The notes beneath the pieces are model-generated. The model saw only the letters and a program-made list of their open reading frames with translations, did not search any database and was not told where the DNA came from. A program made the translations under genes and the position numbers. A stretch of 64,000 nucleotides of DNA, from NCBI GenBank assembly GCA_023818695.1, contig JAMWCF010000001.1, positions 3,538 through 67,537 of the forward strand. The letters run 5' to 3'. This document shows, in pieces, positions 9,563 to 61,387 of the stretch. How positions within the stretch are numbered: the first letter of the stretch is position 1; each line of letters begins with the position of its first letter. Source of the DNA: Candidatus Omnitrophota bacterium. Its GTDB lineage: Bacteria > Omnitrophota > Gorgyraeia > 1-14-0-20-64-10.

Positions 9563-9606
9563 CGGACAGAACAAGTTACAAGCCATTCCGTTTTGGGATG
9601 GACGCG

Positions 9607-9615
9607 TGCTATAAT
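9607..9615 (+). promoter_or_regulatory. Extended -10 promoter (TGcTATAAT) for purB; predicts a near-leaderless transcript
   Basis: TGnTATAAT at 9607-9615, only 12 nt before the purB ATG, with no Shine-Dalgarno between them. Confidence 0.3.
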
Positions 9616-9627
9616 AAATTTTCTCTA

Positions 9628-13883: not shown

Positions 13884-13886
13884 GAT

Positions 13887-14675: not shown

Positions 14676-14678
14676 GCC

Positions 14679-39309: not shown

Positions 39310-41631
39310 ATGCGATACGGCATGTTCCTTCGTCCCAATCTGCGCCATTCTTTCTTGCGGGCCGCACTCTGTCTCGTCCTCTCCGTCCTTCTCGCTGTCC
39401 CGGTTTGGTGCGAGGAAGGGGAATTCAAGGTGACGGCCGTGGAGGTGGAAGGCAACACCATTGTGTCTTCCGGAACGATTCTTTCGAAGATCAAAACACG
39501 GCCCGGAGACACCATCCGCCAGGCAGAGGTGGATGAGGATATCAAACGTCTTTATGCCACCGGGTTCTTTATTGATGTTTCCGCCGAGACGCGTTCCTAC
39601 CAGGACGGGCAGTTGATCCGCTTCCGGGTGAAGGAGCGGCCGCTGGTTTCCAGCATCGTGATCACGGGCAACCGCCATTTTAGGGAGAATAAGATCCGGG
39701 AGGAACTGGGGACGAAGGAGCAGGAGTTGTTGGACCGCAGGCAGTTGAAGGAGGACCTGGACAAGATCCGCCAGCTCTACCGAACGAAGGGGTTCTACCT
39801 GGCGGACATCAGCTCGGATGTCAAGATAGACGAGGCGACCAACAGGGCCACCGTTTTCATCACCGTAACGGAAGGGAAGAAAATCCGCGTCAGGAGGATT
39901 CGGTTCAGCGGCAACGAACATATCTCCAGCAAGCGTTTGCGCAAGGCGATGTCCACGAAGCAGGGATGGTGGTTCACGGCCGGCTATTACCGTCCCGAAG
40001 TCCTGGAGGATGACGAAGAGCGGCTGAAGGCACTTTACCGGTCGGAGGGCTACAGCGACGTTCGGGTGGATTCCTCCGTGCAGTTTGACGAAAAGAGAAG
40101 ATGGCTGACGGTCTCGATCATCGTTGAAGAGGGCCCCCTTTACCTCGTCGGCAACGTCCTCTTCCGCGGGGTTTCCCAGCTGCCGGAGGGGGAGCTGGCG
40201 GAGAAGCTCAAACTCCGGGCGGAGGAGCCGTTCAGCCAGGACCGTTTGGCGGAAGACGTGGCGATGGTTCAATCGGCCTATTTTGCAAAGGGATTCATGG
40301 CCGCTTCCGTGGATCCGACGACTGCCTTGAACCCTGCGACGAACCGGGTGGATGTGACCCTGCAGGTGGAGGAAGGAGCGATTTATTACGTGGGGGAGGT
40401 CTTGATCCGCGGGAACACCAAAACGCGGGATACGGTAATTCGAAGGGAATTGCTGGTTTCCCCCGGAGAGCGCTTTGACGGGGACCGCTTGAGGCGTTCC
40501 AAGGAGCGGCTTTACAACCTGGGATATTTCGAGGAGGTGACGCTGGAAACGGTGCCGTCTGAGGAACCGCAGATGCGGGACTTGGTGGTCTCCGTCAAAG
40601 AGAGCAAGACAGGCGAGTTTTCGTTTGGCGGCGGGTTCAGCTCGGTTGACAGCTTCATCGGTTTTGCGGAGATCACCCAGCGCAACTTTGATCTCTTCAA
40701 CTGGCCGACCTTTACAGGGGGCGGGCAGGAGCTCAAGTTCAGCGTTTTACTCGGGACGACCCGGAAGGATTTCGAGCTTTCGTTCACGGAACCGTGGGTG
40801 TTCGACTACCCCTATCTGTTCGGTTTCGACCTTTTCCAGACAAGCCGGATTGAGGCGGAAGGGTACAGCTTTGATTTGAGGCGGCGCGGCGGCGACCTGC
40901 GGCTCGGCAAACGGCTCGGAGATTTCGACAAGCTGGCGTTCCTCTACCGCTTGGAGCGCGTGGAGGTTTCCAATGTGGCCGACACGGCGTCGGCGCCCCT
41001 TTTGGCCGAGGTGGGGACCAACACGATTTCCGCCATCCGACTGGCTTATACCCGGGATATCCGGGACAATGTTTTCAACCCGACAAGCGGCTATCTTTTC
41101 TCCACAAACGCGGAGGTCGCGGGTTCGGTCTTGGGCGGCGACAAGGATTTCTGGAGGTGGACGGGGACGGCCTCTTATGATGTGGAGCCGTTTATCGACA
41201 ACCAGGTCCTGGAACTGCGCGCCAATCTGGGGATCGTCAACGAGTACGGTGATTCCGATGCTGTCCCGATCTTTGAGCGGTTTTTCGCTGGAGGGGCGGA
41301 CAGCATCCGGGGTTACCAGGAGCGCCGGGTGGGTCCGAAGGATGTCGTGACAAACGATCCGGTCGGCGGCGAGGCGCTGGCCGTCTTCAATGCGGAGTAC
41401 ACGGTCCCGTTCGCTGATTTTCTGAAGGGCGCGATCTTCTACGATGTCGGCAACGTATGGGCGGATATGGAGGATTTCGGGTCGGAGGGTTTTAAGTCGG
41501 GGGCGGGAGCGGGTGTTCGGGTAAAAACTCCTTTCGGGCCTGTCAAACTTGATTACGGGTTTCCGATCAATCCGGACAAGGGCGAGCGAAAGACAGGCCG
41601 GGTGCATTTTTCCGCGAGCAGAAGCTTCTAA
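39310..41631 (+). CDS. bamA: Outer membrane protein assembly factor BamA (Omp85)
   Basis: Signal peptide, multiple POTRA repeats, C-terminal beta-barrel ending ...VHFSASRSF. Confidence 0.88.
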   Translation: MRYGMFLRPNLRHSFLRAALCLVLSVLLAVPVWCEEGEFKVTAVEVEGNTIVSSGTILSKIKTRPGDTIRQAEVDEDIKRLYATGFFIDVSAETRSYQDGQLIRFRVKERPLVSSIVITGNRHFRENKIREELGTKEQELLDRRQLKEDLDKIRQLYRTKGFYLADISSDVKIDEATNRATVFITVTEGKKIRVRRIRFSGNEHISSKRLRKAMSTKQGWWFTAGYYRPEVLEDDEERLKALYRSEGYSDVRVDSSVQFDEKRRWLTVSIIVEEGPLYLVGNVLFRGVSQLPEGELAEKLKLRAEEPFSQDRLAEDVAMVQSAYFAKGFMAASVDPTTALNPATNRVDVTLQVEEGAIYYVGEVLIRGNTKTRDTVIRRELLVSPGERFDGDRLRRSKERLYNLGYFEEVTLETVPSEEPQMRDLVVSVKESKTGEFSFGGGFSSVDSFIGFAEITQRNFDLFNWPTFTGGGQELKFSVLLGTTRKDFELSFTEPWVFDYPYLFGFDLFQTSRIEAEGYSFDLRRRGGDLRLGKRLGDFDKLAFLYRLERVEVSNVADTASAPLLAEVGTNTISAIRLAYTRDIRDNVFNPTSGYLFSTNAEVAGSVLGGDKDFWRWTGTASYDVEPFIDNQVLELRANLGIVNEYGDSDAVPIFERFFAGGADSIRGYQERRVGPKDVVTNDPVGGEALAVFNAEYTVPFADFLKGAIFYDVGNVWADMEDFGSEGFKSGAGAGVRVKTPFGPVKLDYGFPINPDKGERKTGRVHFSASRSF

Positions 41632-41657
41632 ACAACCTCTCTATTTCAGGTGCGGCG

Positions 41658-42197
41658 ATGAAAACAAACAAAACTTATCTCGCGTTTCTCCTCTTTTTTC
41701 TGGTCTTTTCGGCCGGGGTTCCGTTGTTGGCGGCGGAAGGGGGAGGTTCGGTCGGCAAGGTGGGCATTGTGCGCTTGAGCAAGGTTTTCGACGAATATGA
41801 GCAGACGAAAAGCTCTGAAAGCGCTCTGGAGGACATCTCCAACGCGAAACAGAGCGAGAGGGAGCGGATGGTCATCGAGATCCGGAACATGAGGGATGAG
41901 CTGCTCCTGCTCAATCAGCAGGGCCGGGCCGAGAAACAGAAGGAGATCGAGGAGAAGATGAAAAGTCTGGCTTTGTTCGAGCGCCAGGCCAAAGAGGAGC
42001 TTCAGAAGAAAAGAGAGGAATCCCTCCGCCTGATTTTTGAGCAGATTGAAGGGGTTGTCACCGAATATGCCCGGCAGAACGGTTTCCAGATGATTCTGTC
42101 GGACCGGGCTGTTTTGTACGGCGAGGATTACCTGGACGTGACGGAAGACGTGATCCGGGTCTTGAACAGCCGTCCGACGGCGACGGCAAAACGGTAA
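41658..42197 (+). CDS. skp: OmpH/Skp periplasmic chaperone
   Basis: Signal peptide plus long coiled-coil OmpH-like region; conserved position between bamA and lpxD. Confidence 0.8.
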
Positions 42198-47893: not shown

Positions 47894-47959
47894 GGTTCAA
47901 GCTTCTTTTCTTTGAGCACAGAACAGCAGGATTTCAAATTTAAGGAGGGCAGCTCCCCG

Positions 47960-49228
47960 ATGATCTTTGTGGTTCGAAGGTTCGTTTTTATGTCTTTGGC
48001 GACGGCGGTTGGTTTTTTCGCCTTTCCCGTGAGCCCGTCTGTGGCTGACGAAACAGCCGATCTCATGCAGGAGATCAAAGAGTTGAAGTCCCGCCTGGCA
48101 TCTCTGGAGAGCCGGTTGGCCAAGCAGGAGGCCAAGCCGTCTTCCGCTGCGGCCCTGAGCGCCGTGTCCGATTCGGACGTTCCGTCCTGGGTCAGGAAGG
48201 TTGATATCAGTGGTTTCGTGGATGTGTCCTATGTTTACAACTTCGATGAGCCAAAAACCACTGGTGCCAACGGTCTGCGTGTTTTTGACACCGAGCCAAA
48301 CGGTTTCCAGCCCAATGCCTTCGAGTTGGTCGTCCAGAAGCCGGTTTCCACCGACTCGCCAGTCGGCTTCCGGGCCGATCTGGATGTCGGCGAGGATGCC
48401 GAGATCGTGGGGTCGGTGACAACCGGTTTGGGGTCGACAACCGATGAAATCGATCTTCAGCAGGCCTATGTGGAGGCGCTGGTGCCTGTCGGCAGCGGGT
48501 TGAACGTGAAGGCGGGGAAATTTGTGACGCTCCACGGGGCGGAGGTCATCGAATCGAAGGACAACTGGAATTTTTCGAGGTCCTATCTCTTCGGCTACGC
48601 TATTCCCTTTACGCACACGGGTGTCCGGTTGAGCTACCCGCTTACGTCGTGGTTGACCACGACGGCCGGCGTGAGCAATGGCTGGGATGTAGTGGATGAC
48701 AACAACACCGGCAAGACGCTTGAATGGATGCTGGCGGCAACGCCGACCGCGAAAACCTCCCTCTGCGCTACTGTCATGTATGGCCCGGAGCAGACCAATG
48801 ATAACCATGACGACCGGTTTCTGCTGGATGTCGTTCTCGGCTACAACCCCTGTGAGAGATTGTCATTGAAGCTGAACTATGACTATGGGCAGGAGCATGA
48901 CGCGACAATTGAAGACCTGGAGGACGCCAGCTGGCACGGGGTGGCCGGCTACGCCCGGTACCAATTCAACGACTGGTACGCCCTGGCCCTGCGCAGCGAG
49001 TATTTCGTCGATTACGACGGCATCCGGACCGGGGTTCGCGCCGCCAACGGGGTGGGAGACGTTGGTTTGTGGGAATTAACCGTCACAAACGAATTCAAGC
49101 TGTATAAAGATCTCATCACCCGGCTGGAGTACCGTCACGATCACGCCACCAACTCGGTTTTCGCTTCCGGCGGCGGTACCGACAACACGCAAGATACGAT
49201 CAGTCTGGAAGCGATCTATCCGTTCTGA
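47960..49228 (+). CDS. Outer-membrane porin with N-terminal coiled-coil, upstream of amt
   Basis: AAGGAGGG RBS; signal peptide MIFVVRRFVFMSLATAVGFFAFPVSPSVA; coiled-coil; beta-rich body ending ...LEAIYPF (C-terminal Phe). Confidence 0.55.
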   Translation: MIFVVRRFVFMSLATAVGFFAFPVSPSVADETADLMQEIKELKSRLASLESRLAKQEAKPSSAAALSAVSDSDVPSWVRKVDISGFVDVSYVYNFDEPKTTGANGLRVFDTEPNGFQPNAFELVVQKPVSTDSPVGFRADLDVGEDAEIVGSVTTGLGSTTDEIDLQQAYVEALVPVGSGLNVKAGKFVTLHGAEVIESKDNWNFSRSYLFGYAIPFTHTGVRLSYPLTSWLTTTAGVSNGWDVVDDNNTGKTLEWMLAATPTAKTSLCATVMYGPEQTNDNHDDRFLLDVVLGYNPCERLSLKLNYDYGQEHDATIEDLEDASWHGVAGYARYQFNDWYALALRSEYFVDYDGIRTGVRAANGVGDVGLWELTVTNEFKLYKDLITRLEYRHDHATNSVFASGGGTDNTQDTISLEAIYPF

Positions 49229-49290
49229 ATTTTTGATTCGAAGGGTAACAGCGATAGAATGAGTCACATGACGAAGGGAGGATTTTTGAA

Positions 49291-50664
49291 ATGGAATGGA
49301 AAGTAGCGGCAGACACCCTCTGGGTGTTGATAACGGCGATGCTGGTCTTCTGGATGAATGCCGGCTTCGCGACGGTGGAAGCCGGTTTTCAGGCGCAGAA
49401 GAACTGCGTCAATATCTTGTCCAAGAACTTCGTTGTTTTTGCTATTGCGTCGATCGCTTATTGGTGGGTTGGTTTCGGCCTGCAGTTCGGGGATGGCAAC
49501 GGCTGGGTCGGGATGCAGGGGTTGTTTTCTCTTCGCGGAGCCGATAATTCGCCGGCGACCGGGGATGCTTATAAGGGTGTCTACAGCTCCTTGAGCTGGA
49601 CCGGCGTTCCTCTGCTGGCGAAATTCTTTTTCCAGCTGGTTTTCTGCGGGACGGCGGCGACCATCGTTTCAGGAGCGGTCGGAGGCAGGATCAAGTATTT
49701 TTCGTTCCTTGTTTTCTCCTTCTTCCTCTGCGCGCTGGTTTATCCGATCGTCGGACACTGGATCTGGGGCGGAGGATGGCTGGCGAAGGCCGGTTTCTGG
49801 GATTTCGCCGGCTCAACGGTTGTTCACTCGGTCGGCGGCTGGGGTGCCCTCGCGGGGGCTCTTCTGCTAGGGCCCCGCTTCGGCAAATACAGCCCCACCG
49901 GTTCCATCATGCCGACGCCGGGCCATAATCTGTCGCTGGCCACGATAGGAACCTTCATCCTGTGGCTTGGCTGGTTCGGGTTCAATCCTGGATCAACCAT
50001 GGCGGCGGATCCGAGCGCCATCGCCCGGATCTGCGTGACGACCAACTCCGCCGCGATTGCCGGGATCCTGGGAGCCACTTTGACCTCCTGGATCACGCTG
50101 GGCAAGCCGGACCTGGGCATGACCTTGAACGGCTGTCTGGCCGGGCTGGTCGGCATCACGGCGCCGTGCGCCTTTGTCAGCGTGGAGAGTTCGCTGATCA
50201 TTGGCTTCATCGCGGGTGTTCTGGTCGTGCTGGCTGTCCCGATCTTTGACCGGCTGCGGATCGACGACCCGGTCGGCGCCACCTCGGTCCACCTCGTCAA
50301 TGGGATCTGGGGGACCCTGGCGGTCGGTCTTTTCGCGCAGGATTCGATCATGCCGAATACCACCGGAAACGGCCTGTTTTTCGGGGGAGGCACCAAGCTC
50401 CTGGCCGCCCAGGCGACCGGTGTTTTCGCCGTTGGGGTGTTCACGTTCGTGACCTGCGCGATCGTGTGGGCTCTGATCAAGGTGACGATGGGAATCCGAG
50501 TCGCTCTCCATGAGGAGATCTCCGGTCTGGATGTCGGCGAGCACGGCAACTCGGCCTATCCGGAGTTCGTGATCCGCAAGCCCTCTTATTCCTATGCGAG
50601 CATCGTGGCCCGTCCCGCGGAATACAGCGAGACGCCGGTTTCTGTGAATGGAGGCAAGAAATGA
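49291..50664 (+). CDS. amt: Ammonium transporter (Amt family)
   Basis: 11-TM Amt/MEP protein with signature stretches such as GAVGGRIKYFSF and FGFNPGS. Confidence 0.92.
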   Translation: MEWKVAADTLWVLITAMLVFWMNAGFATVEAGFQAQKNCVNILSKNFVVFAIASIAYWWVGFGLQFGDGNGWVGMQGLFSLRGADNSPATGDAYKGVYSSLSWTGVPLLAKFFFQLVFCGTAATIVSGAVGGRIKYFSFLVFSFFLCALVYPIVGHWIWGGGWLAKAGFWDFAGSTVVHSVGGWGALAGALLLGPRFGKYSPTGSIMPTPGHNLSLATIGTFILWLGWFGFNPGSTMAADPSAIARICVTTNSAAIAGILGATLTSWITLGKPDLGMTLNGCLAGLVGITAPCAFVSVESSLIIGFIAGVLVVLAVPIFDRLRIDDPVGATSVHLVNGIWGTLAVGLFAQDSIMPNTTGNGLFFGGGTKLLAAQATGVFAVGVFTFVTCAIVWALIKVTMGIRVALHEEISGLDVGEHGNSAYPEFVIRKPSYSYASIVARPAEYSETPVSVNGGKK

Positions 50665-50999
50665 AGAAGATTGAAGCGATCATCCGCCCGGAGAAGGTCG
50701 ATGAGGTGCGCCGGGCTCTGGAAAAAGTCGGATTTCCCGGTCTTCACATCGGCGAAGTGGAGGGGCACGGGAAGCAGAAGGGAGTCGTCCAGCAGTGGCG
50801 CGGCGAGCAGTACCGGGTGGAACTGCTTTCCAAGGTGAAGCTGGAGATTGTGGCCAACGACAAGGACGCCTCGAAGATCGTCCAGGCCATCCAGGACGCC
50901 GCCAAAACCGGCGGCGTGGGGGACGGGAAGATTTTCATCTCGCCGGTCGAAGAGGTGATCCGGATCCGGACCGGGGAGAGGGGGGATTCCGCCCTTTAA
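50661..50999 (+). CDS. glnK: Nitrogen regulatory protein P-II (GlnK type, linked to amt)
   Basis: MKKIEAIIRPEKVDEVRRAL...T-loop RGEQYRVELL with the conserved Tyr; overlaps the amt stop. Confidence 0.9.
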   Translation: MKKIEAIIRPEKVDEVRRALEKVGFPGLHIGEVEGHGKQKGVVQQWRGEQYRVELLSKVKLEIVANDKDASKIVQAIQDAAKTGGVGDGKIFISPVEEVIRIRTGERGDSAL

Positions 51000-51024
51000 A
51001 AAGGGGCGCCCGGCTGGGCAGGGC

Positions 51025-51063
51025 CTTAACCGGGATTTAACATCCCCGTAATATTGTTGTAAC
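51025..51063 (+). promoter_or_regulatory. Four consecutive 11-bp-phased direct repeats (CTTAAC / TTTAAC / CGTAAT / TGTAAC) upstream of glnA
   Basis: Hexamer ends at 51030, 51041, 51052 and 51063; includes GGATTTAACAT, identical to the 11-mer upstream of the porin-amt operon. Confidence 0.4.
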
Positions 51064-51253
51064 GGCCGGAAATTAAGCTAGAATAGTCAATATTCCGGGC
51101 TGGGGAACCCCACCCCTCCTGTTTCTGCACGGTTGGACACAGTTCTTCCAAAGGGCCGTTTTTCCCTTGTAGAGAAATCGGGCCGAGTGTCTTGATTCGA
51201 ATCAGTTTTTGAGGTGGATTTTGAAAAAGCGAAAGAAGGAGAAACGAAAAGCC

Positions 51254-52795
51254 ATGGCACGAGGGACCACAGCAGCTAAAACACGGGGCAAGGCGTCATT
51301 GAATGGGCGGGGGAGCCAGTCCGAAAAGACGTTCCCCATCGCGGCCGTTGCCAACGAGCCGCCGAAAGCGGATGAAGCGGCTGTCCGCCGGTTATGGAAG
51401 ATTATTAAGGAGAATAACATCCAGGTCGTGGACCTGAAGTTCAACGACCTGCCCGGGCTGTGGCAGCATTTTTCCATCCCGGTCTCCGAGTTGAGCGAGA
51501 ACCCCAGAGAGGGGATCTGGGTCGACGGGATTGGGTTCGACGGGTCGTCGATCCGCGGTTTCCAGAAGATCCAGGAATCGGACATGAACCTGTATGCCGA
51601 CCCGAGCACGGCGATCCTGGACCCGGTTTGCGAGGCGCCGACCTTGAGCATGATCTGCGACATCTATGATCCGTTGACGAAGAAGCCCTACACCCGGGAC
51701 CCCCGCTACATCGCCAGGAAGGCCGAAGCGTACCTGAAGAAAACCGGCATCGCCGACATCAGCTACTGGGGTCCGGAACCGGAATTCTTCATCTTCGATG
51801 ACATCCGGTTCGATTCGACGGAAAACTCCAGCTACTACTTCGTCGATTCCATCGAAGGAGAGTGGAACTCCGGCCGGGACGAGAAGCCAAACCTCGGCTA
51901 CAAGCCCCGCTTCAAGGAAGGGTACTTCCCGGTGCCGCCTCACGATGTCTTTCAGGACATCCGCAGCGAGATCATGAAGAAGGCCCGGGAGGCCGGCGTC
52001 CCCGTGGAGAAGCATCACCATGAGGTGGCCACGGCCGGTCAGGCGGAGATCGACATGCGCTACGGCACCCTCACCCAGATGGCGGACTGGCTGATGACGC
52101 TCAAATACGTCGTCAAGAACGTCGCCCGCAAGCACGGCAAGGTGGCCACCTACATGCCCAAGCCGCTCTTCGGCGACAACGGATCCGGCATGCACACCCA
52201 CCAGAGTCTCGCGAAAGAGGGGACCAACCTGTTCTACGACAAGAACGGCTACGCCCTGATCAGCCAGACCTGCAAGTGGTACATCGGCGGGCTGCTTAAG
52301 CATGCCCCGGCAATCCTGGCCTTCGCGGCTCCCGGCACCAACTCTTACAAGCGGTTGGTCCCCGGCTACGAGGCGCCTGTGAACTTGGCCTACTCGGCCC
52401 GGAACCGGTCGGCGATCTGCCGCATCCCGGTTTACACGCCGCACCCGAAAAGCAAGAGGGTGGAGTTCCGCGCCCCCGACCCCTCCTGCAACCCGTACAT
52501 CACGTTCGCGGCGCTGCTTATGGCGGGGCTGGATGGCATCCAGAACCGGATCGATCCGGGACAGCCGGTGGATGAGAACATCTACGAGATGCCGGCGGAC
52601 AAGGCGCCCAAGCAGGTGCCCGGTTCGCTGGAGGAGGCGCTTGACGCCCTCGAGAGGGACCACGCGTTCCTGCTCAAGGGAGACGTCTTCACCAAGGACG
52701 TCATCGAGGTGTGGCTGGAGTACAAGCGGCAGGAGATTGACAAAGTCCGGCTCCGACCGCATCCGTACGAGTTCTACCTGTACTTCGACGCCTAA
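51254..52795 (+). CDS. glnA: Glutamine synthetase type I-beta (E. coli-like, with adenylylation-region Tyr) carrying a ~40-aa basic N-terminal extension
   Basis: Near-collinear with E. coli GlnA (…[16 protein letters not shown]…[14 protein letters not shown]…NIYEMPAD…); first in-frame ATG is 51254, ~40 codons upstream of the position aligning with E. coli Met1. Confidence 0.88.
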
Positions 52796-52829
52796 GAGTC
52801 AAGGTTCCTTGTCAAAGTGATTCAAGCGA

Positions 52830-52865
52830 CGCCCGGGCCGCCACGCGCGCCCGGGCGTTTGCTTG
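52830..52865 (+). terminator. Rho-independent terminator after glnA (CGCCCGGGC-loop-GCCCGGGCG followed by TTTGCTTG)
   Basis: 9-bp GC-rich inverted repeat at 52830-52838 and 52849-52857, then a T-rich tract. Confidence 0.5.
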
Positions 52866-52879
52866 TCGAGTGAGAGCCA

Positions 52880-54217
52880 ATGCCCGCTATTGAGCTGAAA
52901 GACAAAGAATACGTCCTGAAATCGGCCCGCGACCTCGGGGTCAAGTTCATCCGGTTGTGGTTCACCGACATCCTCGGGTTCCTGAAGAACGTGGCGATCA
53001 CCATCGAGGAACTGGAGGAGGCCCTGGAGGAAGGGGTCGGTTTCGACGGTTCCTCCATCGAGGGGTTCACCCGGTCCGAGGAGTCCGACATGGTGGCTTT
53101 GCCGGATCCGAACACCTTCGCGGTTTTGCCCTGGAGGCCGAAAGCCAACGCCGTTGCCCGAATGTTCTGCGACATCGTGCGCCCTGGCGGGGAACCGTTT
53201 GAAGGGGATCCCCGCTACGTTTTGAAGCAGAATCTGAAGAAGGCGGCCGAGTTGGGCTACACCTTTTACGTCGGGCCGGAGCTGGAGCATTTCTATTTCA
53301 AGTCGGCCGAGGAGCCGATCCCCTTGGATGCCGGCGGCTATTTCGACCTGACCCCGCTGGATCTGGCTTCCAACCTGCGGCGTGAAACGATCCTGGCGCT
53401 GGAGGAGCTGGGGATCGGCGTCGAGTTCAGCCACCATGAGGTGGCCCCCTCCCAGCATGAGATCGATTTCCGGTACGCCGACGCCCTGACGATGGCGGAC
53501 AACGTGATGACCTACCGGCTCGTCACCAAGGAGATCGCCCTGGAGCACGGGGTCTACGCCACTTTCATGCCGAAGCCGATGGCCGGGCAGAACGGTTCCG
53601 GCATGCATGTGAACATCTCCCTCTTTAAAGGGGAGAGGAACGCCTTCTTCGATCCGAACGATCCGGCCCATCTGTCCGGAGTGGCTAAGAGCTTTCTTGC
53701 CGGGATCCTCAAGCATGTCAGGGAGTTCACCGTGGTCACCAACCAGTGGGTGAATTCCTACAAGCGGCTGACCCCCGGTTATGAGGCGCCGGCTTATGTC
53801 ACCTGGGCTTTAACGAACCGGGCCGATCTGGTGCGTGTCCCCAGGGCTAAACCAGGTAAAGAAGAGGCCTGCCGAATTGAACTGCGGTCTCCTGACCCGG
53901 CTTGCAACCCGTACCTGGCTTTCAGCGCCATCTTGGCGGCCGGACTGGATGGTATCCGGAAGAAAGAATCTCTTCCGCCTGAAGCGCAAACTAACGTGGC
54001 CTCCCTCTCCCCCGCGGAGAGGTCCCAAAAGGGGATCCAGGCCCTTCCCAGAGATCTGGGAGAGGCGATTGAAGCGGCCAGCGGCTCGGCGCTTCTGAAA
54101 TCGGCGTTGGGCGACCACATCTACAGTTCCTTCCTGCGCAACAAGCAGATGGAATGGGAAAAATACTGCTCTGCCGTCACCGATTTTGACCTGAAGACCT
54201 ACTTACCGTTGCTGTAA
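52880..54217 (+). CDS. glnA: Glutamine synthetase type I-alpha (B. subtilis-like, 445 aa)
   Basis: MPAIELKDKEYVLKSARDLGVKFIRLWFTDILG... short GSI-alpha architecture lacking the 25-aa insertion. Confidence 0.9.
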   Translation: MPAIELKDKEYVLKSARDLGVKFIRLWFTDILGFLKNVAITIEELEEALEEGVGFDGSSIEGFTRSEESDMVALPDPNTFAVLPWRPKANAVARMFCDIVRPGGEPFEGDPRYVLKQNLKKAAELGYTFYVGPELEHFYFKSAEEPIPLDAGGYFDLTPLDLASNLRRETILALEELGIGVEFSHHEVAPSQHEIDFRYADALTMADNVMTYRLVTKEIALEHGVYATFMPKPMAGQNGSGMHVNISLFKGERNAFFDPNDPAHLSGVAKSFLAGILKHVREFTVVTNQWVNSYKRLTPGYEAPAYVTWALTNRADLVRVPRAKPGKEEACRIELRSPDPACNPYLAFSAILAAGLDGIRKKESLPPEAQTNVASLSPAERSQKGIQALPRDLGEAIEAASGSALLKSALGDHIYSSFLRNKQMEWEKYCSAVTDFDLKTYLPLL

Positions 54218-54500
54218 TAAATAGTAAAAGCTTATCGAACGCATATTCTCCTTCTCCCGATTTCGATGGTCTTTGGTAATGCACCCCTGTCGGCAAGCCG
54301 GTTCAAACGCAGATCGATCCGGTGCAGGAGGCGTCCGCCATCCTGGCCAAAAATCTCAATAATGTATCTCCTGCGAATGCAGCGCCTTCCATAGTAGTTA
54401 ATAGGAATTAAATCTAATATAAGGCCTTGCCAAATCAGGTTTAGTTAAGGTAAACTTGACCTCACCATTGAGGAAACACCATTTCCTGCCGGTTCTTACG

Positions 54501-57416
54501 ATGAGATCTATAACAGTTTTCAAGAGAAGCATTGCCTTTTTCGCGGCGATCTCGCTGGGATTGCCAGGGACCTCCTTTGCCTTGAGGCCGGTCAGCCCTG
54601 TGGAGTCAGGCGTCCAGGATCAGCTGGTCCTCTCCCTGTCTGCTGGCCTGGAGGAAGAGAAGGATTTGGGCCTGCGCAGGCGGGTCGATGTCGGCGGACA
54701 GGTGGTGGTCTGGAGCTTCAACCAGGAACAGCCCCCTCAGATCGTCCGGATTCGGTTGGCGGAAGTCAAAGGAATGAAGAGAGGTGCCATCGAGTTCCAG
54801 GGGCCTCCGACAGTCTTGATCTTCCGTCAAAAGCTGTGGGACCAGATTACGCGCGAGGTCACAGAGAGGGGCGGTTTCAATTCCGGCGGCGGCAGGGGCC
54901 ATCTGCAAACATTCGTCAAGGAGGTGGAGGAGGGGAAATGGCTCAAGTTGAATTTCAAGGCGGAAAAGGATTATCGGAGCAAGGGCACTTACCCGCCCGG
55001 TGAACGGGGGGAGGGGGTCATCCTGTACGATCTGACCTCCAACCGGGAGATTGCGCGGGTCTTCCTCCGGGCCGTCGCGTCGAACAGTTCAGCCGAACTT
55101 CGGCTCGTCGCCCCGAAGGACGTTAAGCTGGATGATGAAGCGACTTATCTCTCCAAACTGGCCGACCTGGCGGCGCGGCCGATCCCGTACGATGAGGCGA
55201 TCCTTATCGATGACAGCGCTCTCGTCCCCGTCCGCCTGTTCGCCGATACCTCCGGCGGCGCGCCGAACAGCTTTGTGCCCGTCCCGTCCCAAGGGGTTTT
55301 CATCCCCTCTACTTACCTGGAAGAGTGGAGGGGGCGGGGTTTCTTCATCCTTAACCGCCAGGGGAATGGGCAGCGTTTCCTGCACGTCGTGCTTGGTAAT
55401 AAAGCCCATTTCCCGAACGTCAACACGGTTTTCATGCAGGCGGGAGCCGATCCTGTCGCGGCTCGGTTGAGTTTGTCCAGGTCAAGCCGGACCGAAGACG
55501 GATTCACTGTGGAGGTGACGCCGCAGGGAGTGACAATCCGGCCCGGATCAGGACAGCAGATACTGGTTGAAAGGTCATTCATTCCCTTTGAGATGAACCT
55601 GCGGTCCCTTTTCGAAGATGCCGGGGTCGCTCTGGAAATGCAGCGATGGAGCACGTTGAGCAATCTTCTGACCCGCGTCTCCCGCCTGCAAAAGCCGGAA
55701 CGTGCCCGGCAGACGACCTTCGTCCGAAGGCAGTTGGATACGCTGGAGATCATGCGGATGCAGATGCTGTTGAGCCGCCGCTTGCCTTCCGTCTGGATCG
55801 TCGGCAATCCCTTGTCCAGATCGGCTGAAAACGATTACTGGGCCGCGCTGGCGGCCGGATCTCGGCTTTTGAACCAGCAGCCGCCGCCTCACCAGGAAAC
55901 GGTCCGGATGGTCAGAACGATGATCGCGCAGGCGGTTTTGACATTAAGCGCGGCCGGCTCCCTGGCGCAGCGCACGCGGATTGATCAGATCATGACCAAC
56001 CCGGACGTTCCCCGGGGCCATGTCTACGCCCTGTTCCGGGAAAGATGGCTTGCCCGCGTCCTCCGGGAGCAGGAAAGGGGTCGGCTTGAGCTGCCGAATG
56101 AGTTTTATACCCGCGCCCTGGCCTATGCCCTCATGCAGGTCATGAGCCCCGCGGATCAGTTTTTGAGCCCAGCCGACCGCCTGGACGCGCCGGATGCCCT
56201 GCTGACCTTTTTGCAGGGAGGGGTACCGGCCGATCACCTCGAATCGGCGCGCCAGCGCCACATGGTTCGGAGAATCGTGACAAAGGAGTTGTGGAATGTG
56301 GAGCAGAGCAGGCCGGGACAGATGCCAGAGGATATGATGGAAGAGGTGCTGATGCCTTACGACATCACGATTTTGGAGGCAGCCGCCATCGCCGCACGCG
56401 TTTTGTCTCGTGTGGCGGAGGAGATGGGACACGCTGGAGACGCGGCGAAATTCCGGCAGCTCTCCGAGGAGATTCAGGAACAGCTGCGGGGGCGGGTTTC
56501 CGGCAGGATGCCGCGCCGGCTGGATATGGTGAACGTGGTCCGGGGACCGGTCCAGATTCTTGCGGACAACCTGAGAGAAGAGCAGGAGGTCATCGAAACG
56601 CTGCACGGCCACATGAAGCGTTTACTGGAGGAAGTCACGGAGGAACCGCGCCTCGATCCGGGCTGGGTCCGGTTCTACAACGAGGCGACAGGCAGCAACT
56701 ACTGGATTGAGCTGGGGCCGCCGGATGAATGGCAGGAGCGTTTCGGCCAGGAGGGGGATCTCATGGAGTCGGCCCTCTGGGCGATTTCCGCCGGTGCGGC
56801 AGGCCGGTCCTTCCGGGTGCAGGTCCGGACTTACAGGGAGCGGCATCACAGCAGGTGGGTTCAGGTCCTTGTGCCGGAGGTGACCTATGGTCCCCCCCTG
56901 CCTGATCAGCCCGAGCGCCTGGTGATGCCTTCCGCCGGTCTGGAGGGGACTCTTCCTTTTCGAGCGGTGGACGCGGAGGAATTCGCCCGGAACCTGCCGT
57001 CCCGCTACAGGGATTCCATCCCCGGCGTTTTCAGCAGGGTCTGGGTCGTTCCATTGCCAGCCCGCGTGAATGTTTATTCCCAGGAACCGCTTCTACAGGG
57101 CCTGGAGCGGGATTTCATCGGCAAGCTGCCGGCGGATTTGGCGGCGGCCGTTCGGCTCGTACGGGTCCCTCTGGCGCCGACGGAGTCGTACGAAAAACCC
57201 GGCGTGATTGTAGAAGACGCGGGTCTGGATCTCTCGGTTGATAATCCCCTGAATCTTCCGGTTCTGAAGCTGTGGCTGGCCGACCTGGCCCGCATCAATC
57301 CGGCAGCCGTCATTATGCTGGCCCTGGGTGGCTATCAGGATCCGAATGTGCAGCTTCTGGGGTTGATGACCTACCAGGACGCGCAAGGGCAGACCTTCCT
57401 CGCCATCTTCGCGTAA
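54501..57416 (+). CDS. Large secreted hypothetical protein (~970 aa), no recognisable domain
   Basis: Signal peptide MRSITVFKRSIAFFAAISLGLPGTSFA; beta-rich N-terminal third, helix-rich Arg/Leu/Glu-rich remainder; the track ORF begins at TTG 54456. Confidence 0.55.
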   Translation: MRSITVFKRSIAFFAAISLGLPGTSFALRPVSPVESGVQDQLVLSLSAGLEEEKDLGLRRRVDVGGQVVVWSFNQEQPPQIVRIRLAEVKGMKRGAIEFQGPPTVLIFRQKLWDQITREVTERGGFNSGGGRGHLQTFVKEVEEGKWLKLNFKAEKDYRSKGTYPPGERGEGVILYDLTSNREIARVFLRAVASNSSAELRLVAPKDVKLDDEATYLSKLADLAARPIPYDEAILIDDSALVPVRLFADTSGGAPNSFVPVPSQGVFIPSTYLEEWRGRGFFILNRQGNGQRFLHVVLGNKAHFPNVNTVFMQAGADPVAARLSLSRSSRTEDGFTVEVTPQGVTIRPGSGQQILVERSFIPFEMNLRSLFEDAGVALEMQRWSTLSNLLTRVSRLQKPERARQTTFVRRQLDTLEIMRMQMLLSRRLPSVWIVGNPLSRSAENDYWAALAAGSRLLNQQPPPHQETVRMVRTMIAQAVLTLSAAGSLAQRTRIDQIMTNPDVPRGHVYALFRERWLARVLREQERGRLELPNEFYTRALAYALMQVMSPADQFLSPADRLDAPDALLTFLQGGVPADHLESARQRHMVRRIVTKELWNVEQSRPGQMPEDMMEEVLMPYDITILEAAAIAARVLSRVAEEMGHAGDAAKFRQLSEEIQEQLRGRVSGRMPRRLDMVNVVRGPVQILADNLREEQEVIETLHGHMKRLLEEVTEEPRLDPGWVRFYNEATGSNYWIELGPPDEWQERFGQEGDLMESALWAISAGAAGRSFRVQVRTYRERHHSRWVQVLVPEVTYGPPLPDQPERLVMPSAGLEGTLPFRAVDAEEFARNLPSRYRDSIPGVFSRVWVVPLPARVNVYSQEPLLQGLERDFIGKLPADLAAAVRLVRVPLAPTESYEKPGVIVEDAGLDLSVDNPLNLPVLKLWLADLARINPAAVIMLALGGYQDPNVQLLGLMTYQDAQGQTFLAIFA

Positions 57417-57429
57417 AACCCGGTGCAGA

Positions 57430-58602
57430 TCAGCCGGCCTTTCTCAATTCCTCCAGGATTGTCTGCGCGGCTCTCCGGCTGGCGCCCGTCTCACCGAGGG
57501 AGTGTTTGATTTTCCGGAAATCCTCGACCATCTTGTTTCGCCAGGAGGCCTCTTTCCATAGCTGGATTGCCGTGGCGGCGATCAGAGCGGGGGAGGCGCT
57601 GTGCTGGATGAATTCCGGGACGATCTTTTTGTCGGTGATCCGCCCGTTTTCATCGGCTGATGCCACCACGTTGACCAGTCCGATCACCGGGATCTTGATG
57701 AGCAGACGTGAAAGGAAATAGGTCGGCCACGAGGTCTTGTAGGCGATCAGCATCGGCCTTTCCAGCAGGGCGCATTCCAGCGTGGCCGTCCCCGAGGCGA
57801 CCAGCACAAAATCGCAACTGTGGATGCAACTGTAATCCCAGCGTTCGACGACTTTCGGCTTCAGGGCGGATCGGGTCATCGCCTGCCTGTAGATCTCCCA
57901 GTCCAGATGCGGCGCTTTGATGAGGAGGAACTGGGTCGTGGAAGGCAGCTCTTTCTGCATCCGCTCGCCGGCGGCGAGAAAAATCGGGAGGATCCGACGG
58001 ACCTCCCCTTCGCGGGACCCCGGCAGCAGGCCGACGACTGGCATACGGTCTTCCAGCCCCAGCTGTTGCAGGGACTCTGCCCTGGAAAGGGCCGGCTTGA
58101 CATGTTCGACCAGCGGATGTCCGACGAAAGTTACGGGAACGCCGGCCTGTTCGTAGATCTTTTGCTCGAAGGGGAAGACCACCAGCATCCGGCTGACCAG
58201 GGATTTGATTTTGTGGATCCGGCCCGGATCCCAGGCCCAGATCTGTGGGCTGATGAAATAAACCACCGGGATCCCGCGGGTTTTCGCTTCACGAGCGAAC
58301 CGGAGGTTGAAGCCGGGGTAGTCGATCAGAACCACCACGTCCGGCCGCCTCTCATCCAGCGTTGCGGCCGCTTTCCGGAACATGGCCTGGAAGGTTCCGA
58401 GATGGCGCAGGACCTCCACGATGCCGATCACCGCCAGCTCCGTCGGGTCGACGAGGATTTCCACGCCGGCCTGTTTCATGCCGCTTCCGCCGAAACCGAA
58501 AAGCTGCAGGTCCGGTTCCAGGGCGAAGAGTTCGGCAGCCAGGTGTGCGCCGTGGAGATCGCCGGAGGATTCGCCGGCGATTAGCATGATTTTTTTTGTC
58601 AT
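57430..58602 (-). CDS. lpxB: Lipid-A-disaccharide synthase LpxB
   Basis: MTKKIMLIAGESSGDLHGAHLAAEL...GT-B fold; the track ORF (655 aa) is extended upstream in frame, and the true start ATG is at 58602. Confidence 0.88.
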   Translation of the reverse strand: MTKKIMLIAGESSGDLHGAHLAAELFALEPDLQLFGFGGSGMKQAGVEILVDPTELAVIGIVEVLRHLGTFQAMFRKAAATLDERRPDVVVLIDYPGFNLRFAREAKTRGIPVVYFISPQIWAWDPGRIHKIKSLVSRMLVVFPFEQKIYEQAGVPVTFVGHPLVEHVKPALSRAESLQQLGLEDRMPVVGLLPGSREGEVRRILPIFLAAGERMQKELPSTTQFLLIKAPHLDWEIYRQAMTRSALKPKVVERWDYSCIHSCDFVLVASGTATLECALLERPMLIAYKTSWPTYFLSRLLIKIPVIGLVNVVASADENGRITDKKIVPEFIQHSASPALIAATAIQLWKEASWRNKMVEDFRKIKHSLGETGASRRAAQTILEELRKAG

Positions 58603-59543
58603 GGGTGGTTTTGGTGAACGAGGCGGGTGATCTGCAGGGCCAAGTCCAGCGCGTCCCGGGCCTCCTGGCCGGAGACTGGCGGCGGCCGCTTGTGTTGGAT
58701 CGCCTCCAGGAAGGCGGCCAGCTCCGCTTTCAGCGGTTCTTCCGGGGCGATCCGGAGCCGTTCGTGGGTGATGCGCCCTATCCGGCCCTTTTTTGTGCCG
58801 GGCAGATGCCGGAAGATCTCCACCCGCTGCTTCAAAAGATCCATGGAAACGTAGGTGTCGGCTTGGAAGATGCGGAACTTTCGCATCGCCTTGTTGGAGA
58901 TCCGGCTGGCGGTGAGGTTGGCCACGGCGCCGTTCTGGAAGGCGATTCTGGCGTTGGCGATATCTTCGGAGGAAGTCAGGACCCGCACCCCGACGGCATC
59001 CACCCGTTTCACGGGACTTTTGACCAGCCCCAGCAGGATATCGATGTCGTGGATCATCAGGTCCAGGACGACCCCAACCTCCGTGCCACGGGGCTGGAAA
59101 GCGGCCAGTCGATGAGTCTCGATGAAGCGGGGATTGCTCAAGGAATCCCGGACCCGCCGAAAGGCGGCGTTGAACCGCTCCACATGCCCGACCTGCAGGA
59201 TGGCCCCTGTTTTTGCGGAGATCCCCAGGAGCTGATCCGCCTGTTCGACGGTGTTGGTGATCGGTTTCTCCACCAGGGTGTGGATTCCCTTGGCGAGGAA
59301 GGCCTGTGCGATACGGAAGTGCTCCTGGGTCGGAACGGCGACGGAGACGGCGTCGACCTGGCCGATCAGTTCCTGGAAGTCCTTTACCGCCTTGCAATGG
59401 TATTGGCGGGCGAGGGTCTTCGCCTGTTCCGGGCGCAGGTCGCAGACCGCAACCAATTGTGCTGATTCAAGTTGTGAGTATATTCTGGCATGGATCGAGC
59501 CCAGATGCCCGACGCCGACTACGGCAACTTTGATAGGTTCCAT
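58599..59543 (-). CDS. Gfo/Idh/MocA-family NAD(P)-dependent oxidoreductase, translationally coupled to lpxB
   Basis: Rossmann motif VAVVGVGHLGSIHA; EKP motif LVEKPIT; 4-nt overlap with the lpxB start. Confidence 0.8.
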   Translation of the reverse strand: MEPIKVAVVGVGHLGSIHARIYSQLESAQLVAVCDLRPEQAKTLARQYHCKAVKDFQELIGQVDAVSVAVPTQEHFRIAQAFLAKGIHTLVEKPITNTVEQADQLLGISAKTGAILQVGHVERFNAAFRRVRDSLSNPRFIETHRLAAFQPRGTEVGVVLDLMIHDIDILLGLVKSPVKRVDAVGVRVLTSSEDIANARIAFQNGAVANLTASRISNKAMRKFRIFQADTYVSMDLLKQRVEIFRHLPGTKKGRIGRITHERLRIAPEEPLKAELAAFLEAIQHKRPPPVSGQEARDALDLALQITRLVHQNHP

Positions 59544-59599: not shown

Positions 59600-61387
59600 A
59601 TGAAGAATTACCTCAAGCTCTTGCCGTTCCTGAAGCCCCATTCCGGGCTGATTGCCGCCGCCTTCGTTTTCATGCTGGCAACCAGTCTCTTCGAAGGGGT
59701 CTCTCTGGGGATGATCGTGCCGCTGATCGACATGGTTTTGCTCAACAAGTCGGTTGACCTGCCGGAGTGGGCCCCCTCCTTTCTGACCTCCGGCGTCGCA
59801 TTTCTGGATGGGATGAACCCTTTGAGCAAGCTCAACGCGATCGTCGGCGTTTCCATCGTCCTTTTCGTGCTGAAGAACCTGTGCATCTTCTTTCAGAAGT
59901 ATCTGATGAACGACGTGGCGATGAAGTTCCTGCGGGACACCCGCAACGCCCTTTACCGACACTATGAAACACTCTCCCTCGATTTCTTCGGCGGAGAGAA
60001 GACGGGCGACATGGTCTCCCGCATGACCAGCGACGTCTCGGTCCTCCACAACACGCTCGTCGAGGGGATCACGGACCTGGTTTACAACTCCACCCGGGCC
60101 CTCGTGTTCATGCTGATGGCGGTCCTGATCGACGTCCGGTTGGCGCTGGTGGTCCTGCTGCTTTTGCCGGCGATCGGCTACCCGGTTGTCCGGATCGGCA
60201 AGGCTCTGCGCAAGCTCGGTGTGCTGGCCCAGCAGAGGATGGCCGATATCAACAGCCATCTGATAGAGACCTTCCAGGGAATCCGGATCATCAAGGCGTT
60301 CACCGCCGAGGAGACGGCAGCCGCCCGTTTCGGGAAGGTCAACCAGGAGTATTACAAGGCCAACATCAAGACGGTGAAGAGACGGGAGGCGTTGGGGGCG
60401 ATCACGGAGATCATCGGCGTCGCCGCGGGACTTTTTGTGCTGGAAGTCGGAGGGCGAGCGGTTTTGAGCGGCCAGCTGTCGCCCGGCGTCTTCGTGCTGT
60501 TCATCGGCTCTCTGATGTCCCTGCTGCCGCCGGTCAAGAAATTAAGCCGCCTGCATTCCATCCACCAGCACGCGGTGGTCGCGGCCAAACGGATCGTCTC
60601 CATTCTTGATGTAAAATCGACGGTCGCCGAATCTCCCGCGGCCGTCGATCTGCCCCGTTTTCAAAAAGAGATCCGGTTTGAGGACGTTTGGTTCAAATAC
60701 CAGGACCAGTACATCCTGCAGGGGATCAACCTGTCCATCCCCGCAGGACGGGTTCTGGGGATCGTCGGCTCCAGCGGGGCCGGGAAGACAACCCTCCTGA
60801 ACCTGATTCCCCGGTTTTACGATCCGGTCAAGGGGCGGATCCTGATCGATGGGCAGGATATCAGGCAGGCGACCCTGCGCTCGCTCCGTTCGCAGATCGG
60901 GCTGGTGACGCAGGACCCGTTCCTTTTCAACGACACGGTCAGGGCGAACATCTCTTTCGGGTTTCCGGCGGCCGATGAGCAGGCGATCGTCGCGGCGGCC
61001 AAAGCCGCCAACGCCGACTCCTTCATCCGGAATCTGCCCAACGGATATGACACGGTTGTGGGGGACCTGGGAAACCGCCTATCGGGCGGGGAGCGCCAGC
61101 GGATCGCCATCGCCAGGGCCATTTTGAAGGATCCGCCGATTCTGATCCTGGATGAAGCCACCTCCCAGCTGGATTCCGAGTCAGAATTGCTGGTGCAGGA
61201 GGCGCTGGACCGGCTGATGAAGGGCCGGACGGTTTTCGTGATCTCCCACCGGTTTTCGGCCATCCGCGGGGCCGATCAGATCATCGTTCTGGAAGGGGGC
61301 AGGGTGGTGGAGAGCGGCCGACACGAGGATCTCCTGAAGGATTCCGCTATCTATAAGCGGCTGTATGAATTGCAGGTTGCGCAGTAA
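59600..61387 (+). CDS. msbA: ABC transporter ATP-binding/permease, MsbA-like lipid A flippase
   Basis: Six-TM domain plus NBD with Walker A GSSGAGKTT, signature LSGGERQRIAIARA, Walker B ILILDEATS. Confidence 0.85.
   Translation: MKNYLKLLPFLKPHSGLIAAAFVFMLATSLFEGVSLGMIVPLIDMVLLNKSVDLPEWAPSFLTSGVAFLDGMNPLSKLNAIVGVSIVLFVLKNLCIFFQKYLMNDVAMKFLRDTRNALYRHYETLSLDFFGGEKTGDMVSRMTSDVSVLHNTLVEGITDLVYNSTRALVFMLMAVLIDVRLALVVLLLLPAIGYPVVRIGKALRKLGVLAQQRMADINSHLIETFQGIRIIKAFTAEETAAARFGKVNQEYYKANIKTVKRREALGAITEIIGVAAGLFVLEVGGRAVLSGQLSPGVFVLFIGSLMSLLPPVKKLSRLHSIHQHAVVAAKRIVSILDVKSTVAESPAAVDLPRFQKEIRFEDVWFKYQDQYILQGINLSIPAGRVLGIVGSSGAGKTTLLNLIPRFYDPVKGRILIDGQDIRQATLRSLRSQIGLVTQDPFLFNDTVRANISFGFPAADEQAIVAAAKAANADSFIRNLPNGYDTVVGDLGNRLSGGERQRIAIARAILKDPPILILDEATSQLDSESELLVQEALDRLMKGRTVFVISHRFSAIRGADQIIVLEGGRVVESGRHEDLLKDSAIYKRLYELQVAQ

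Follow-up and report, generated by a model that had tools for sequence, protein, structure and literature searches.

What does a large exported protein with no recognised domain do between a glutamine synthetase gene and the genes for the late steps of lipid A synthesis? This question is raised by gene X, as we will call it, which lies at 54501..57416 on the + strand of a stretch of 64,000 nt from contig JAMWCF010000001.1, part of a Candidatus Omnitrophota metagenome-assembled genome (MAG). The whole stretch will be called the window. The initial annotation described X as a secreted protein of 986 aa without relatives and proposed that it could be a lineage-specific factor of envelope assembly. 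We have found that X is the fastest-evolving and architecturally most variable gene, with exchange of modules, in an otherwise conserved and collinear housekeeping region. Judging from sequence comparison, it belongs to a new, previously undescribed protein family, mostly from Omnitrophota where the organism is named.

One chromosomal slot and its variable gene

We will start with the chromosomal position of the family. A family gene holds the slot between glnA and a convergent lpxB (glnA -> X <- lpxB) in 10 of the 11 loci with readable context: the window, L001, L003, L004, L005, L006, L007, L009, L010 and L011. In these loci the family gene follows glnA and/or is convergent with the pair formed by lpxB and a GFO/MocA gene, with msbA and rpsB coming next. 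These relatives are positional orthologs of X. The region is collinear across these genomes, from glnA to lpxB, msbA, rpsB and tsf, and X has the same direction as glnA in each locus which reaches upstream of X. The flanking proteins are 53–85% identical to those of the window; the value of 53% corresponds to one lpxB fragment of 58 aa. The modules of X which are shared between loci are merely 30–57% identical.

The size and the architecture of the slot gene also change from one genome to another. Its product has about 600 aa in L004 and 971, 1208, 1382, 1413, 1633, 1766 and 2904 aa in other loci. If we call A, B, C, D and CTD (C-terminal domain) the modules which are described in the next section, their order across the family may be A-B-C-D-CTD, A-A-B-C-D...CTD, A-C-B, C-B...CTD, C-C or CTD only. 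Accessory Pfam domains are also found, each of them in one member: WD40, HATPase_c, FHA, HEAT and HTH_20/TetR_N.

Genes X and lpxB are very close to each other. In the window they are separated by 13 nt (57417–57429), with no terminator-like structure between them. In four loci their stops overlap by exactly 4 nt (L007 9355–9358, L009 5669–5672, L010 6580–6583, L011 7120–7123) and the convergent downstream gene was confirmed as lpxB by similarity; in L006 the overlap reaches 28 nt. Such an arrangement may allow transcriptional interference. Since both genes are convergent, X is not co-transcribed with lpxB, and since the whole region is collinear, their adjacency carries little functional information.

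Several loci have features of their own. The shortest occupant of the slot is found in L004 (705–2528): it has about 600 aa between glnA and lpxB, still ends in a CTD and may define the minimal functional architecture. In L005 a gene for an AAA_14/DUF4143 ATPase is inserted between X and lpxB (6628–7863), which suggests that the slot tolerates insertions. The sole exception to the slot is P0009 (L002, 55–6474), a second family member from the MAG of L001. Three CBM9/CBM30/CBM11 proteins are encoded downstream of it, and it contains about five repeats of 95 aa (WRPT...YGQLVA..DP) and a long Gln/Ala-rich region which resembles a coiled coil. An extra module of about 300 aa is common to P0002 (~1040–1345), P0008 (1–300) and P0012 (90–400); it has 61 invariant positions, which include GHG, KAGRG and LTPD. 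By eye it could be taken for a PP2C-like domain, an identity which neither Pfam nor a profile search of the PDB supports.

The gene itself is one single long open reading frame (ORF) on the + strand, which ends at 57416. Counted from ATG 54501 it has 971 aa plus the stop, the same length as its NCBI entry (MCM8811483.1, 'hypothetical protein', Candidatus Omnitrophota MAG). The ORF of the initial annotation is thus present, and its 986 aa are obtained when the same frame is counted from an upstream TTG at 54456. This TTG shares the last base of the -10 box (TAAACT) of a promoter-like element detected in a consensus scan. The core of this element, GGTA(A/T)ACTT, is invariant in the four aligned loci (window, L001, L005, L007), and a TTGMMA -35 box is kept in the three of them where the alignment reaches that far; that of L007 stops short. 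We favour ATG 54501 as the start because TTG 54456 overlaps the conserved -10 box. Transcription would be predicted to begin some 7 nt beyond TAAACT, near 54463.

Codon usage is normal, as had been noted: the GC content at third codon positions is 0.744 (0.72–0.87 in the neighbours), and the coding log-likelihood is positive in this frame only, with a value of 0.19 versus 0.24–0.38 for the neighbours. The upstream intergenic DNA had been considered unusually AT-rich, with a length of 240 bp. It has in fact 283 bp and 45% GC, which is ordinary for the window, where most other intergenic regions have 39–45%. An Rfam scan of this region found no RNA element. X is a real gene: its coding signal is frame-specific, over 20 relatives conserve the protein, and its promoter-like element is conserved as well.

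Searches with X in Pfam, NCBIfam, PHROGs, PADLOC and PDB sequences gave no significant match. The initial annotation had recognised no motif, repeat or domain, which agrees with these empty searches and leaves out the five modules which recur within the family. The idea of a protein without relatives holds only in a word-indexed protein search, which finds X itself only and is nearly blind to its family. An exhaustive HMMER search of 1.84 billion cluster representatives gives 22 relatives, 20 of them with E<=1e-10. All come from metagenomes or MAGs of uncultured bacteria; the named sources are Candidatus Omnitrophota, with the exception of one MAG labelled Planctomycetia. Pattern scans of genomes and metagenomes for loci of the family gave four loci only. 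A phage or defence origin of X was also considered and rejected, as there is no signal in PHROGs, PADLOC or BFVD.

Constant ends, exchangeable modules and a junction motif

An AlphaFold2 (AF2) model of X was built with the family alignment, and its segments were then searched iteratively against the family. The mean predicted local distance difference test (pLDDT) of the model is 80; it is over 90 across most of residues 260–700 and 820–971 and below 50 at residues 21–59 and 800–817. Five recurrent family modules make up X: A, B, C, D and CTD. The features of the gene are the following, all on the + strand:

54427..54456, promoter-like element: TTGCCA, 18 nt, TAAACT
54501..57416, gene X
54501..54581, signal peptide, residues 1–27 (by inspection; in register in 15 family members)
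54582..54677, acidic disordered pro-leader, residues 28–59 (low pLDDT, leader alignment)
54642–54656, AGLEE in the leader, residues 48–52
54678..55175, module A, residues 60–225, beta-rich, possibly two CsrA-like half-units (weak evidence)
55176..55580, module B, residues 226–360, mostly beta with one short helix, family-specific
55581..56510, module C, residues 361–670, helical, about 12 main helices (pLDDT mostly over 90)
56511..56900, module D, residues 671–800, alpha/beta, family-specific
56901..56951, disordered linker, residues 801–817 (low pLDDT)
56934–56948, AGLEG, a degenerate motif copy in the linker before the CTD, residues 812–816
56952..57413, CTD, residues 818–971, alpha/beta, with the end ...TFLAIFA

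The model is beta-rich in residues 60–360 and helical in residues 361–670, as the initial annotation had proposed; in the rest of the chain (671–971), which it had included in the helical part, alpha and beta structure are mixed. Module C is the most widespread of the family modules.

The two ends are the constant parts of the family. The CTD sits at the extreme C-terminus in all its carriers, which are proteins of 88 to 2904 aa. In X it is 39–57% identical to the full-length CTDs of 10 relatives, and 29% and 35% identical to the most divergent sequences (P0021 and the fragment P0023). When modelled alone it appears as an alpha/beta domain of about 150 aa with a pLDDT of 86. The C-terminus of P0007 is a divergent copy of the CTD (hhalign 92%). 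The alternative C-termini of P0010 and P0006 were also tried as divergent CTDs, but hhalign gives no support to them.

At the other end we find the leader. The predicted signal peptide of X reads MRSITVFKRS / IAFFAAISLGL / PGTSFA and would be cut before LRP. Its n-region has a charge of +3 and its h-region a length of 11 residues; in the c-region, PGTSFA, position -3 is Ser and position -1 is Ala. By inspection it has all the features of a Sec (type I) signal: a positive n-region, an h-region within 7–15 residues and small residues at -3/-1. Residues 28–52, LRPVSPVESGVQDQLVLSLSAGLEE, have LR and then AGLEE; two copies of the motif are usual in this place, and X has the first of them in a degenerate form. 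This organisation is shared by 15 members: n-region, h-region, LP-x-P-x-(Y/F)-A, an invariant LR and then P-M-x-x-E-G-A-G-L-E-E-L, with a second AGLEE 5–10 residues after the first. The signal peptide reported initially is thus conserved in the family, with its n-h-c segments and its -3/-1 residues. A search with the leader profile gave six more fragments: a weak one, P0029 (E=7.7), and five with E values of 8.6e-6 or below. In all six, unrelated sequence comes after a signal peptide, ALR and two motifs of GLEE type. The family leader is absent from other exported proteins of the window (BamA, Skp-like, porins, PstS-like), which have ordinary signal peptides.

Cysteine gives a second indication. 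X has none, versus about 9 expected for this protein of about 100 kDa. Across the family cysteine amounts to 0.09% of the residues, versus 0.94% in neighbouring genes, a depletion of about 10-fold, and many of the few cysteines sit within signal peptides. Exported proteins of the window (porin, PstS, BamA, Skp) are also poor in cysteine; the cytoplasmic Pur enzymes are not. We conclude that X is probably exported via Sec, because of its conserved Sec-type signal and its cysteine depletion. The initial annotation had also taken X for a large, lineage-specific and exported protein, and export is indeed very probable.

A further signature of the family is a short peptide, AGLEE, found at the junctions. 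GLEE appears 59 times in the 23,311 residues of the family, versus 1.4 expected from composition, an enrichment of about 40-fold. It is preceded by Ala in 43 of the 59 cases, and it is usually found 4–15 residues ahead of the mapped module starts, with a few copies further off. Both copies of X lie inside its two long linkers of low pLDDT; relatives have AGLEE at the junction before the CTD where X has AGLEG. The codons of the motif show synonymous variation, with the frequencies of the whole gene, so it is the peptide and not the DNA which is under selection; this variation also rules out that AGLEE is a DNA-level repeat or a recombination site. No other plausible gene of the window has the motif. 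In the fetched loci it is essentially restricted to X, apart from single stray copies: in L010 within lpxB and the ABC gene, in L005 and L007 within overlapping ORFs.

Two relatives have tails which are rich in AG(L/M)E(E/K), with 4–5 copies in the last 145 residues: P0013 (residues 636–779) and P0006 (residues 1066–1208). Several of these copies come directly after hydrophobic stretches which look like beta strands (...SIFAGMEE, ...HLFAGLEE). Their sequence hints that the motif can also be a structural element at the passage from strand to helix.

Structure comparisons add little to the identity of the modules. Foldseek found nothing in the PDB at E<=0.001, either with the full model or with the separate CTD model. 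TM-scores, normalised by query length, do not exceed 0.14 for the whole chain and 0.34 for the CTD. With the whole chain the weak matches are solenoids of TPR type and enzymes of GH94 type; with the CTD they are three-layer alpha/beta domains of a generic kind. Profile searches of modules B, C, D and CTD against PDB sequences were negative, and permissive Pfam scans of all CTD and module C sequences gave no recurring family. There is no confident match to a known family in the Pfam scan or in the structure search with AF2 and Foldseek against the PDB.

Module A is a particular case. In a profile search against the PDB its top 8 matches all belong to the CsrA family, with E 0.01–0.1. The first half of the module aligns to a CsrA segment with hhalign probabilities of 55–63%, and the second half aligns to the same segment in the same register with 6–21%. 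The matched region corresponds to strands beta3-beta5 of CsrA/RsmA and the start of the helix, and the repeated register suggests a pseudo-dimer in a single chain; the secondary structure predicted by AF2 fits two CsrA-like units. The Pfam CsrA model (PF02599) matches module A of the syntenic ortholog P0002 with E=1.6e-5 and 25.2 bits, for a cutoff of 27, and gives no match on X itself at E<=1. Four of the five first half-units keep Arg where CsrA has R44; the second half-unit of X has Asp there. Conservation does not extend to the basic residues in strand beta1 of CsrA. While CsrA is a cytoplasmic homodimer of 60 aa, module A is a segment of 166 aa in an exported protein and scores below the family thresholds. 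There is weak evidence, from sequence profiles and from the model, that module A has a tandem CsrA-like fold.

Possible functions of the family

The organisation of X resembles several known systems. The closest analogies, in our opinion, are the cargo proteins of the type IX secretion system (T9SS) of Bacteroidota and the polyproteins of MARTX type (multifunctional autoprocessing repeats-in-toxin), although the features tested exclude that X belongs to either of them. T9SS cargo also has an N-terminal Sec signal, highly variable passengers and one conserved domain at the extreme C-terminus. However the T9SS domain is a beta-sandwich of about 70–100 aa recognised by TIGR04183 and Pfam, while the CTD of X is a 150-aa alpha/beta domain with no match in Pfam or NCBIfam, even at permissive thresholds, nor in the PDB. 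The alpha/beta fold rules out a T9SS-type CTD. The X family has moreover an N-terminal pro-leader and an internal junction motif, both absent from T9SS cargo, and no T9SS genes are seen in the window.

MARTX proteins share with X the exchangeable modules in varying arrangements and the unstructured linkers with a short conserved site which contains Leu. They differ by their repeats-in-toxin (RTX), an internal cysteine protease and export by the type I secretion system without a Sec signal. X has instead a Sec-type signal, no cysteine and no RTX or peptidase match in Pfam, and its cleavage at AGLEE is a proposal of ours.

Some other types of exported protein can also be set aside. X is not a lipoprotein, as it has no cysteine. 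An outer-membrane beta-barrel or an autotransporter is discarded as well: no barrel is predicted, the last strand packs in the alpha/beta CTD and the terminal residue is Ala (...LAIFA). An outer-membrane beta-signal or sorting motifs had been suggested initially as something to look for at the C-terminus; we have found there neither a beta-signal nor a sorting domain of T9SS type.

A third comparison comes from the same phylum. Omnitrophota have giant proteins ('Archaeovorins' and others) of over 10,000 aa, exported or membrane-associated, multi-domain and mostly unannotated (10.1101/2023.11.21.568195, 10.64898/2026.06.07.730766). It has been proposed in a preprint that they are cleaved post-translationally, with cleavage points which are unknown (10.1101/2023.11.21.568195), and that they act on host or prey cells (10.1101/2023.11.21.568195, 10.64898/2026.06.07.730766). 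X resembles them as a large, mostly unannotated, exported or membrane-associated multi-domain protein. It differs in the size of its family members (600–2900 aa), in its housekeeping locus and in the absence of C39/S8 peptidase, dockerin and SecA-like domains. The locus of X, its leader and its motif are not mentioned in either paper (10.1101/2023.11.21.568195, 10.64898/2026.06.07.730766).

We tentatively prefer the view that X is a fast-evolving, Sec-exported modular cargo protein, with constant ends for its handling and with recognition or processing sites in its linkers; there is considerable room for doubt. The leader and the CTD would be the handling parts: export in the first place, then sorting, retention or docking to a partner. 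The middle modules would be exchangeable cargo, which would bind rather than catalyse. They appear to be non-enzymatic because no invariant polar residues of catalytic type are found in module C or in the CTD, and X has no cysteine. The AGLEE peptides in exposed linkers would be recognised, most likely by a processing protease, whose cuts would yield the leader, an A–D fragment of about 85 kDa and a CTD of 17 kDa. The fast divergence of the modules would suggest that X acts where the cell meets other cells or its environment. Such a role would be easier to reconcile with the proposed host-dependent lifestyle of Omnitrophota than one in the assembly of lipid A or of the outer membrane. A bolder version, which we consider unlikely, is that leader, AGLEE linkers and CTD form a new sorting-and-maturation code, by which a dedicated protease or sorting machine would cut, at the AGLEE sites, the exported polyprotein of one hypervariable locus into separate cargo proteins, to be delivered to host or prey cells or displayed to them. 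The released cargo would then include CsrA-like, HTH, FHA and HATPase-type effectors.

Several observations weigh against the cargo proposal. X has one perfect motif only: it has AGLEG before the CTD and no motif at the A-B junction, where orthologs have AGLEE. Since X has a degenerate motif at one junction and none at another, processing cannot be essential at all of them. A GLEE-like motif is also found inside the folded CTD, at the start of a helix, so the motif may be in part a structural helix-start element. The fold of the CTD has no resemblance to any known sorting or anchoring domain. No conserved protease, transporter or receptor partner is found in the fetched loci, which have housekeeping neighbours only. 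Relatives bear domains of types which are usually cytoplasmic (HATPase_c, HTH, FHA, WD40, HEAT, CsrA-like). Finally, in P0009 the CTD and the AGLED ahead of it come immediately after a transmembrane helix and the segment RINRQDR; if the positive-inside rule is applied to this segment, the CTD of P0009 would be cytoplasmic.

These observations lead to the alternatives. X might be an exported structural or scaffold protein which is never processed, with AGLEE as a linker or helix-start element inherited by duplication and shuffling of modules, and with the CTD as a domain for oligomerisation or partner binding in the periplasm or at the surface. This is possible, although we think it rather less probable than cargo. 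The GLEE-like motif inside the CTD, the two altered junctions in an ORF which is still intact and the lack of a protease partner in the fetched loci are all as expected from a scaffold, and the only fold hints of module C are TPR-type scaffolds (Foldseek probability 0.75–0.85, E 0.014 or worse). But a 40-fold enrichment together with synonymous codon turnover indicates that the five-residue peptide itself is selected. It sits moreover in disordered linkers rich in Pro, Gly and Ser which otherwise diverge fast, and two copies are found in the conserved leader right after the signal peptide, where there is no domain which needs capping.

The cytoplasmic-looking domains of the relatives, the CsrA-like module A and the topology of P0009 would rather suggest a regulatory scaffold in the cytoplasm or tethered to the inner membrane, with an N-terminal anchor and intracellular modules. 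The accessory domains are indeed typical of intracellular signalling and nucleic-acid binding. A link with nitrogen control could be imagined, as X has the direction of glnA in each locus which reaches upstream and an amt-glnK-glnA-glnA cluster is found there. We find this decidedly unlikely: the h-region is short (about 11 residues), Pro/Gly and a cleavage motif of the -3/-1 type come after it, the positive charge on its N side would place the body of the protein outside even if the segment were not cleaved, cysteine is depleted as in exported and not as in cytoplasmic proteins, and X has a promoter-like element of its own rather than operon coupling with glnA.

The same element, and the convergent orientation, also speak against the envelope role which the initial annotation had deduced from the lipid A genes, with X acting together with LpxB, the GnnA-like dehydrogenase and MsbA. 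The attraction of this proposal is that X abuts lpxB in 10 loci, with the 4-nt stop overlap in four of them, that X is probably extracytoplasmic and that lpxB is recognised by its NCBIfam model at the equivalog cutoff. But linkage is uninformative in a region which is collinear as a whole. X diverges far faster than lpxB and msbA and changes its architecture, with accessory WD40, HTH, FHA and HATPase_c modules. It has no match to the Lpt, Bam or Tam families or to LapB and similar assembly factors, nor any beta-barrel or beta-signal. A core assembly factor would be conserved and X is instead the fastest-evolving gene, so that such a role is very unlikely.

Least credible of all is a divergent glycoside hydrolase or phosphorylase, with module B as beta-sandwich and module C as an (alpha/alpha)6 barrel, as in GH15, GH63, GH65 and GH94. 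The order B-then-C does mimic such enzymes. There is also a weak Pfam match to MGH1-like_GH (E=0.14 with the full protein and 0.026 with module C by itself), GH94, GH15 and GH121 are among the weak Foldseek matches and one GH65 protein appears in the viral list. We have rejected this identification, as the Pfam match is non-significant and limited to one of the 14 sequences of module C, and as Foldseek gives poor superpositions (E 9e-3 or worse, probability <=0.23, TM about 0.08, root-mean-square deviation about 25 Å). Some relatives have C without B, or C-then-B, and module C has no invariant acidic catalytic pair.

Neighbouring genes and meaning of the family

The neighbours which the initial annotation gave for X are those we find: glnA upstream, a convergent lpxB downstream and an MsbA-like exporter beyond it. 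Upstream, a BBP2-type porin, amt, P-II and two glnA genes form a nitrogen-assimilation cluster (47912–54217). Downstream, the order is lpxB, a GFO/MocA dehydrogenase, an MsbA-like ABC exporter, rpsB, tsf and pyrH; lpxB passes the NCBIfam equivalog cutoff. The individual genes are the following:

49291–50664, ammonium transporter amt
50661–50999, P-II protein of 112 aa, which overlaps the amt stop
51209/51329–52795, type-I glutamine synthetase glnA1, passes the GlnA equivalog cutoff
52880–54217, type-I glutamine synthetase glnA2, passes the GlnA equivalog cutoff
58599–59543, - strand, GFO/MocA oxidoreductase; best NCBIfam match UDP-N-acetylglucosamine 3-dehydrogenase with 227 bits, below the cutoff of 450 bits
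59600–61387, 'msbA' neighbour; best match MsbA_lipidA with 485 bits, below the equivalog cutoff of 602 bits

The tandem glnA pair is also present in the relatives L010 and L011. The start of glnA1 is uncertain: from TTG 51209 it would gain an N-terminal extension of 40 residues rich in Lys/Arg (51209–51328), and in this longer ORF the alignment with the GlnA model does not begin before residue 60 or so. The pair formed by lpxB and the GFO/MocA gene is kept in all related loci which reach that far. A GnnA-like enzyme next to lpxB would suggest that GlcN3N is the basis of the lipid A. For the gene at 59600–61387 numerous other families of ABC exporters reach scores close to that of MsbA_lipidA, and its identification as MsbA is plausible from its sequence.

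Other genes of the window are further away. A purine cluster at 9499–18402 contains purB-, purL-, purQ-, purF-, purM- and purD-like genes. Its purL-like ORF (10923–13883) is a PurS-FGAR-AT fusion of 986 aa, a length which coincides with that of X when started at TTG. Other envelope genes are found in 6516–9012 and 39310–42197: a GHL10-family gene, a TamB-like gene, a probable BamA (773 aa) and a probable Skp/OmpH-like gene; the last two have been named from sequence only. To judge from these genes, the organism is a diderm with standard genes for outer-membrane biogenesis, none of which adjoins X.

Omnitrophota are widespread bacteria which have no cultured members and probably depend on hosts; contact with other cells is attributed to their large exported proteins, which lack annotation. 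The locus of X is a compact and tractable example: a fixed slot, a constant leader and CTD, and modules which are swapped between genomes. The family follows a recognisable modular logic of exported cargo with constant ends, and its junction motif is unusual. Modules A (remotely CsrA-like), B, C, D and CTD would be five domain families new to databases; an exported CsrA-like domain would be unusual in itself. If the motif is merely a structural linker, the finding shrinks to a fast-evolving, lineage-specific exported protein. If it is a processing or sorting signal, it marks where such multi-domain proteins are cut and provides a sequence tag for the whole set of substrates and for the enzyme which reads it. 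Under the sorting code, the motif would supply the missing cleavage points for the large multi-domain proteins of this phylum.

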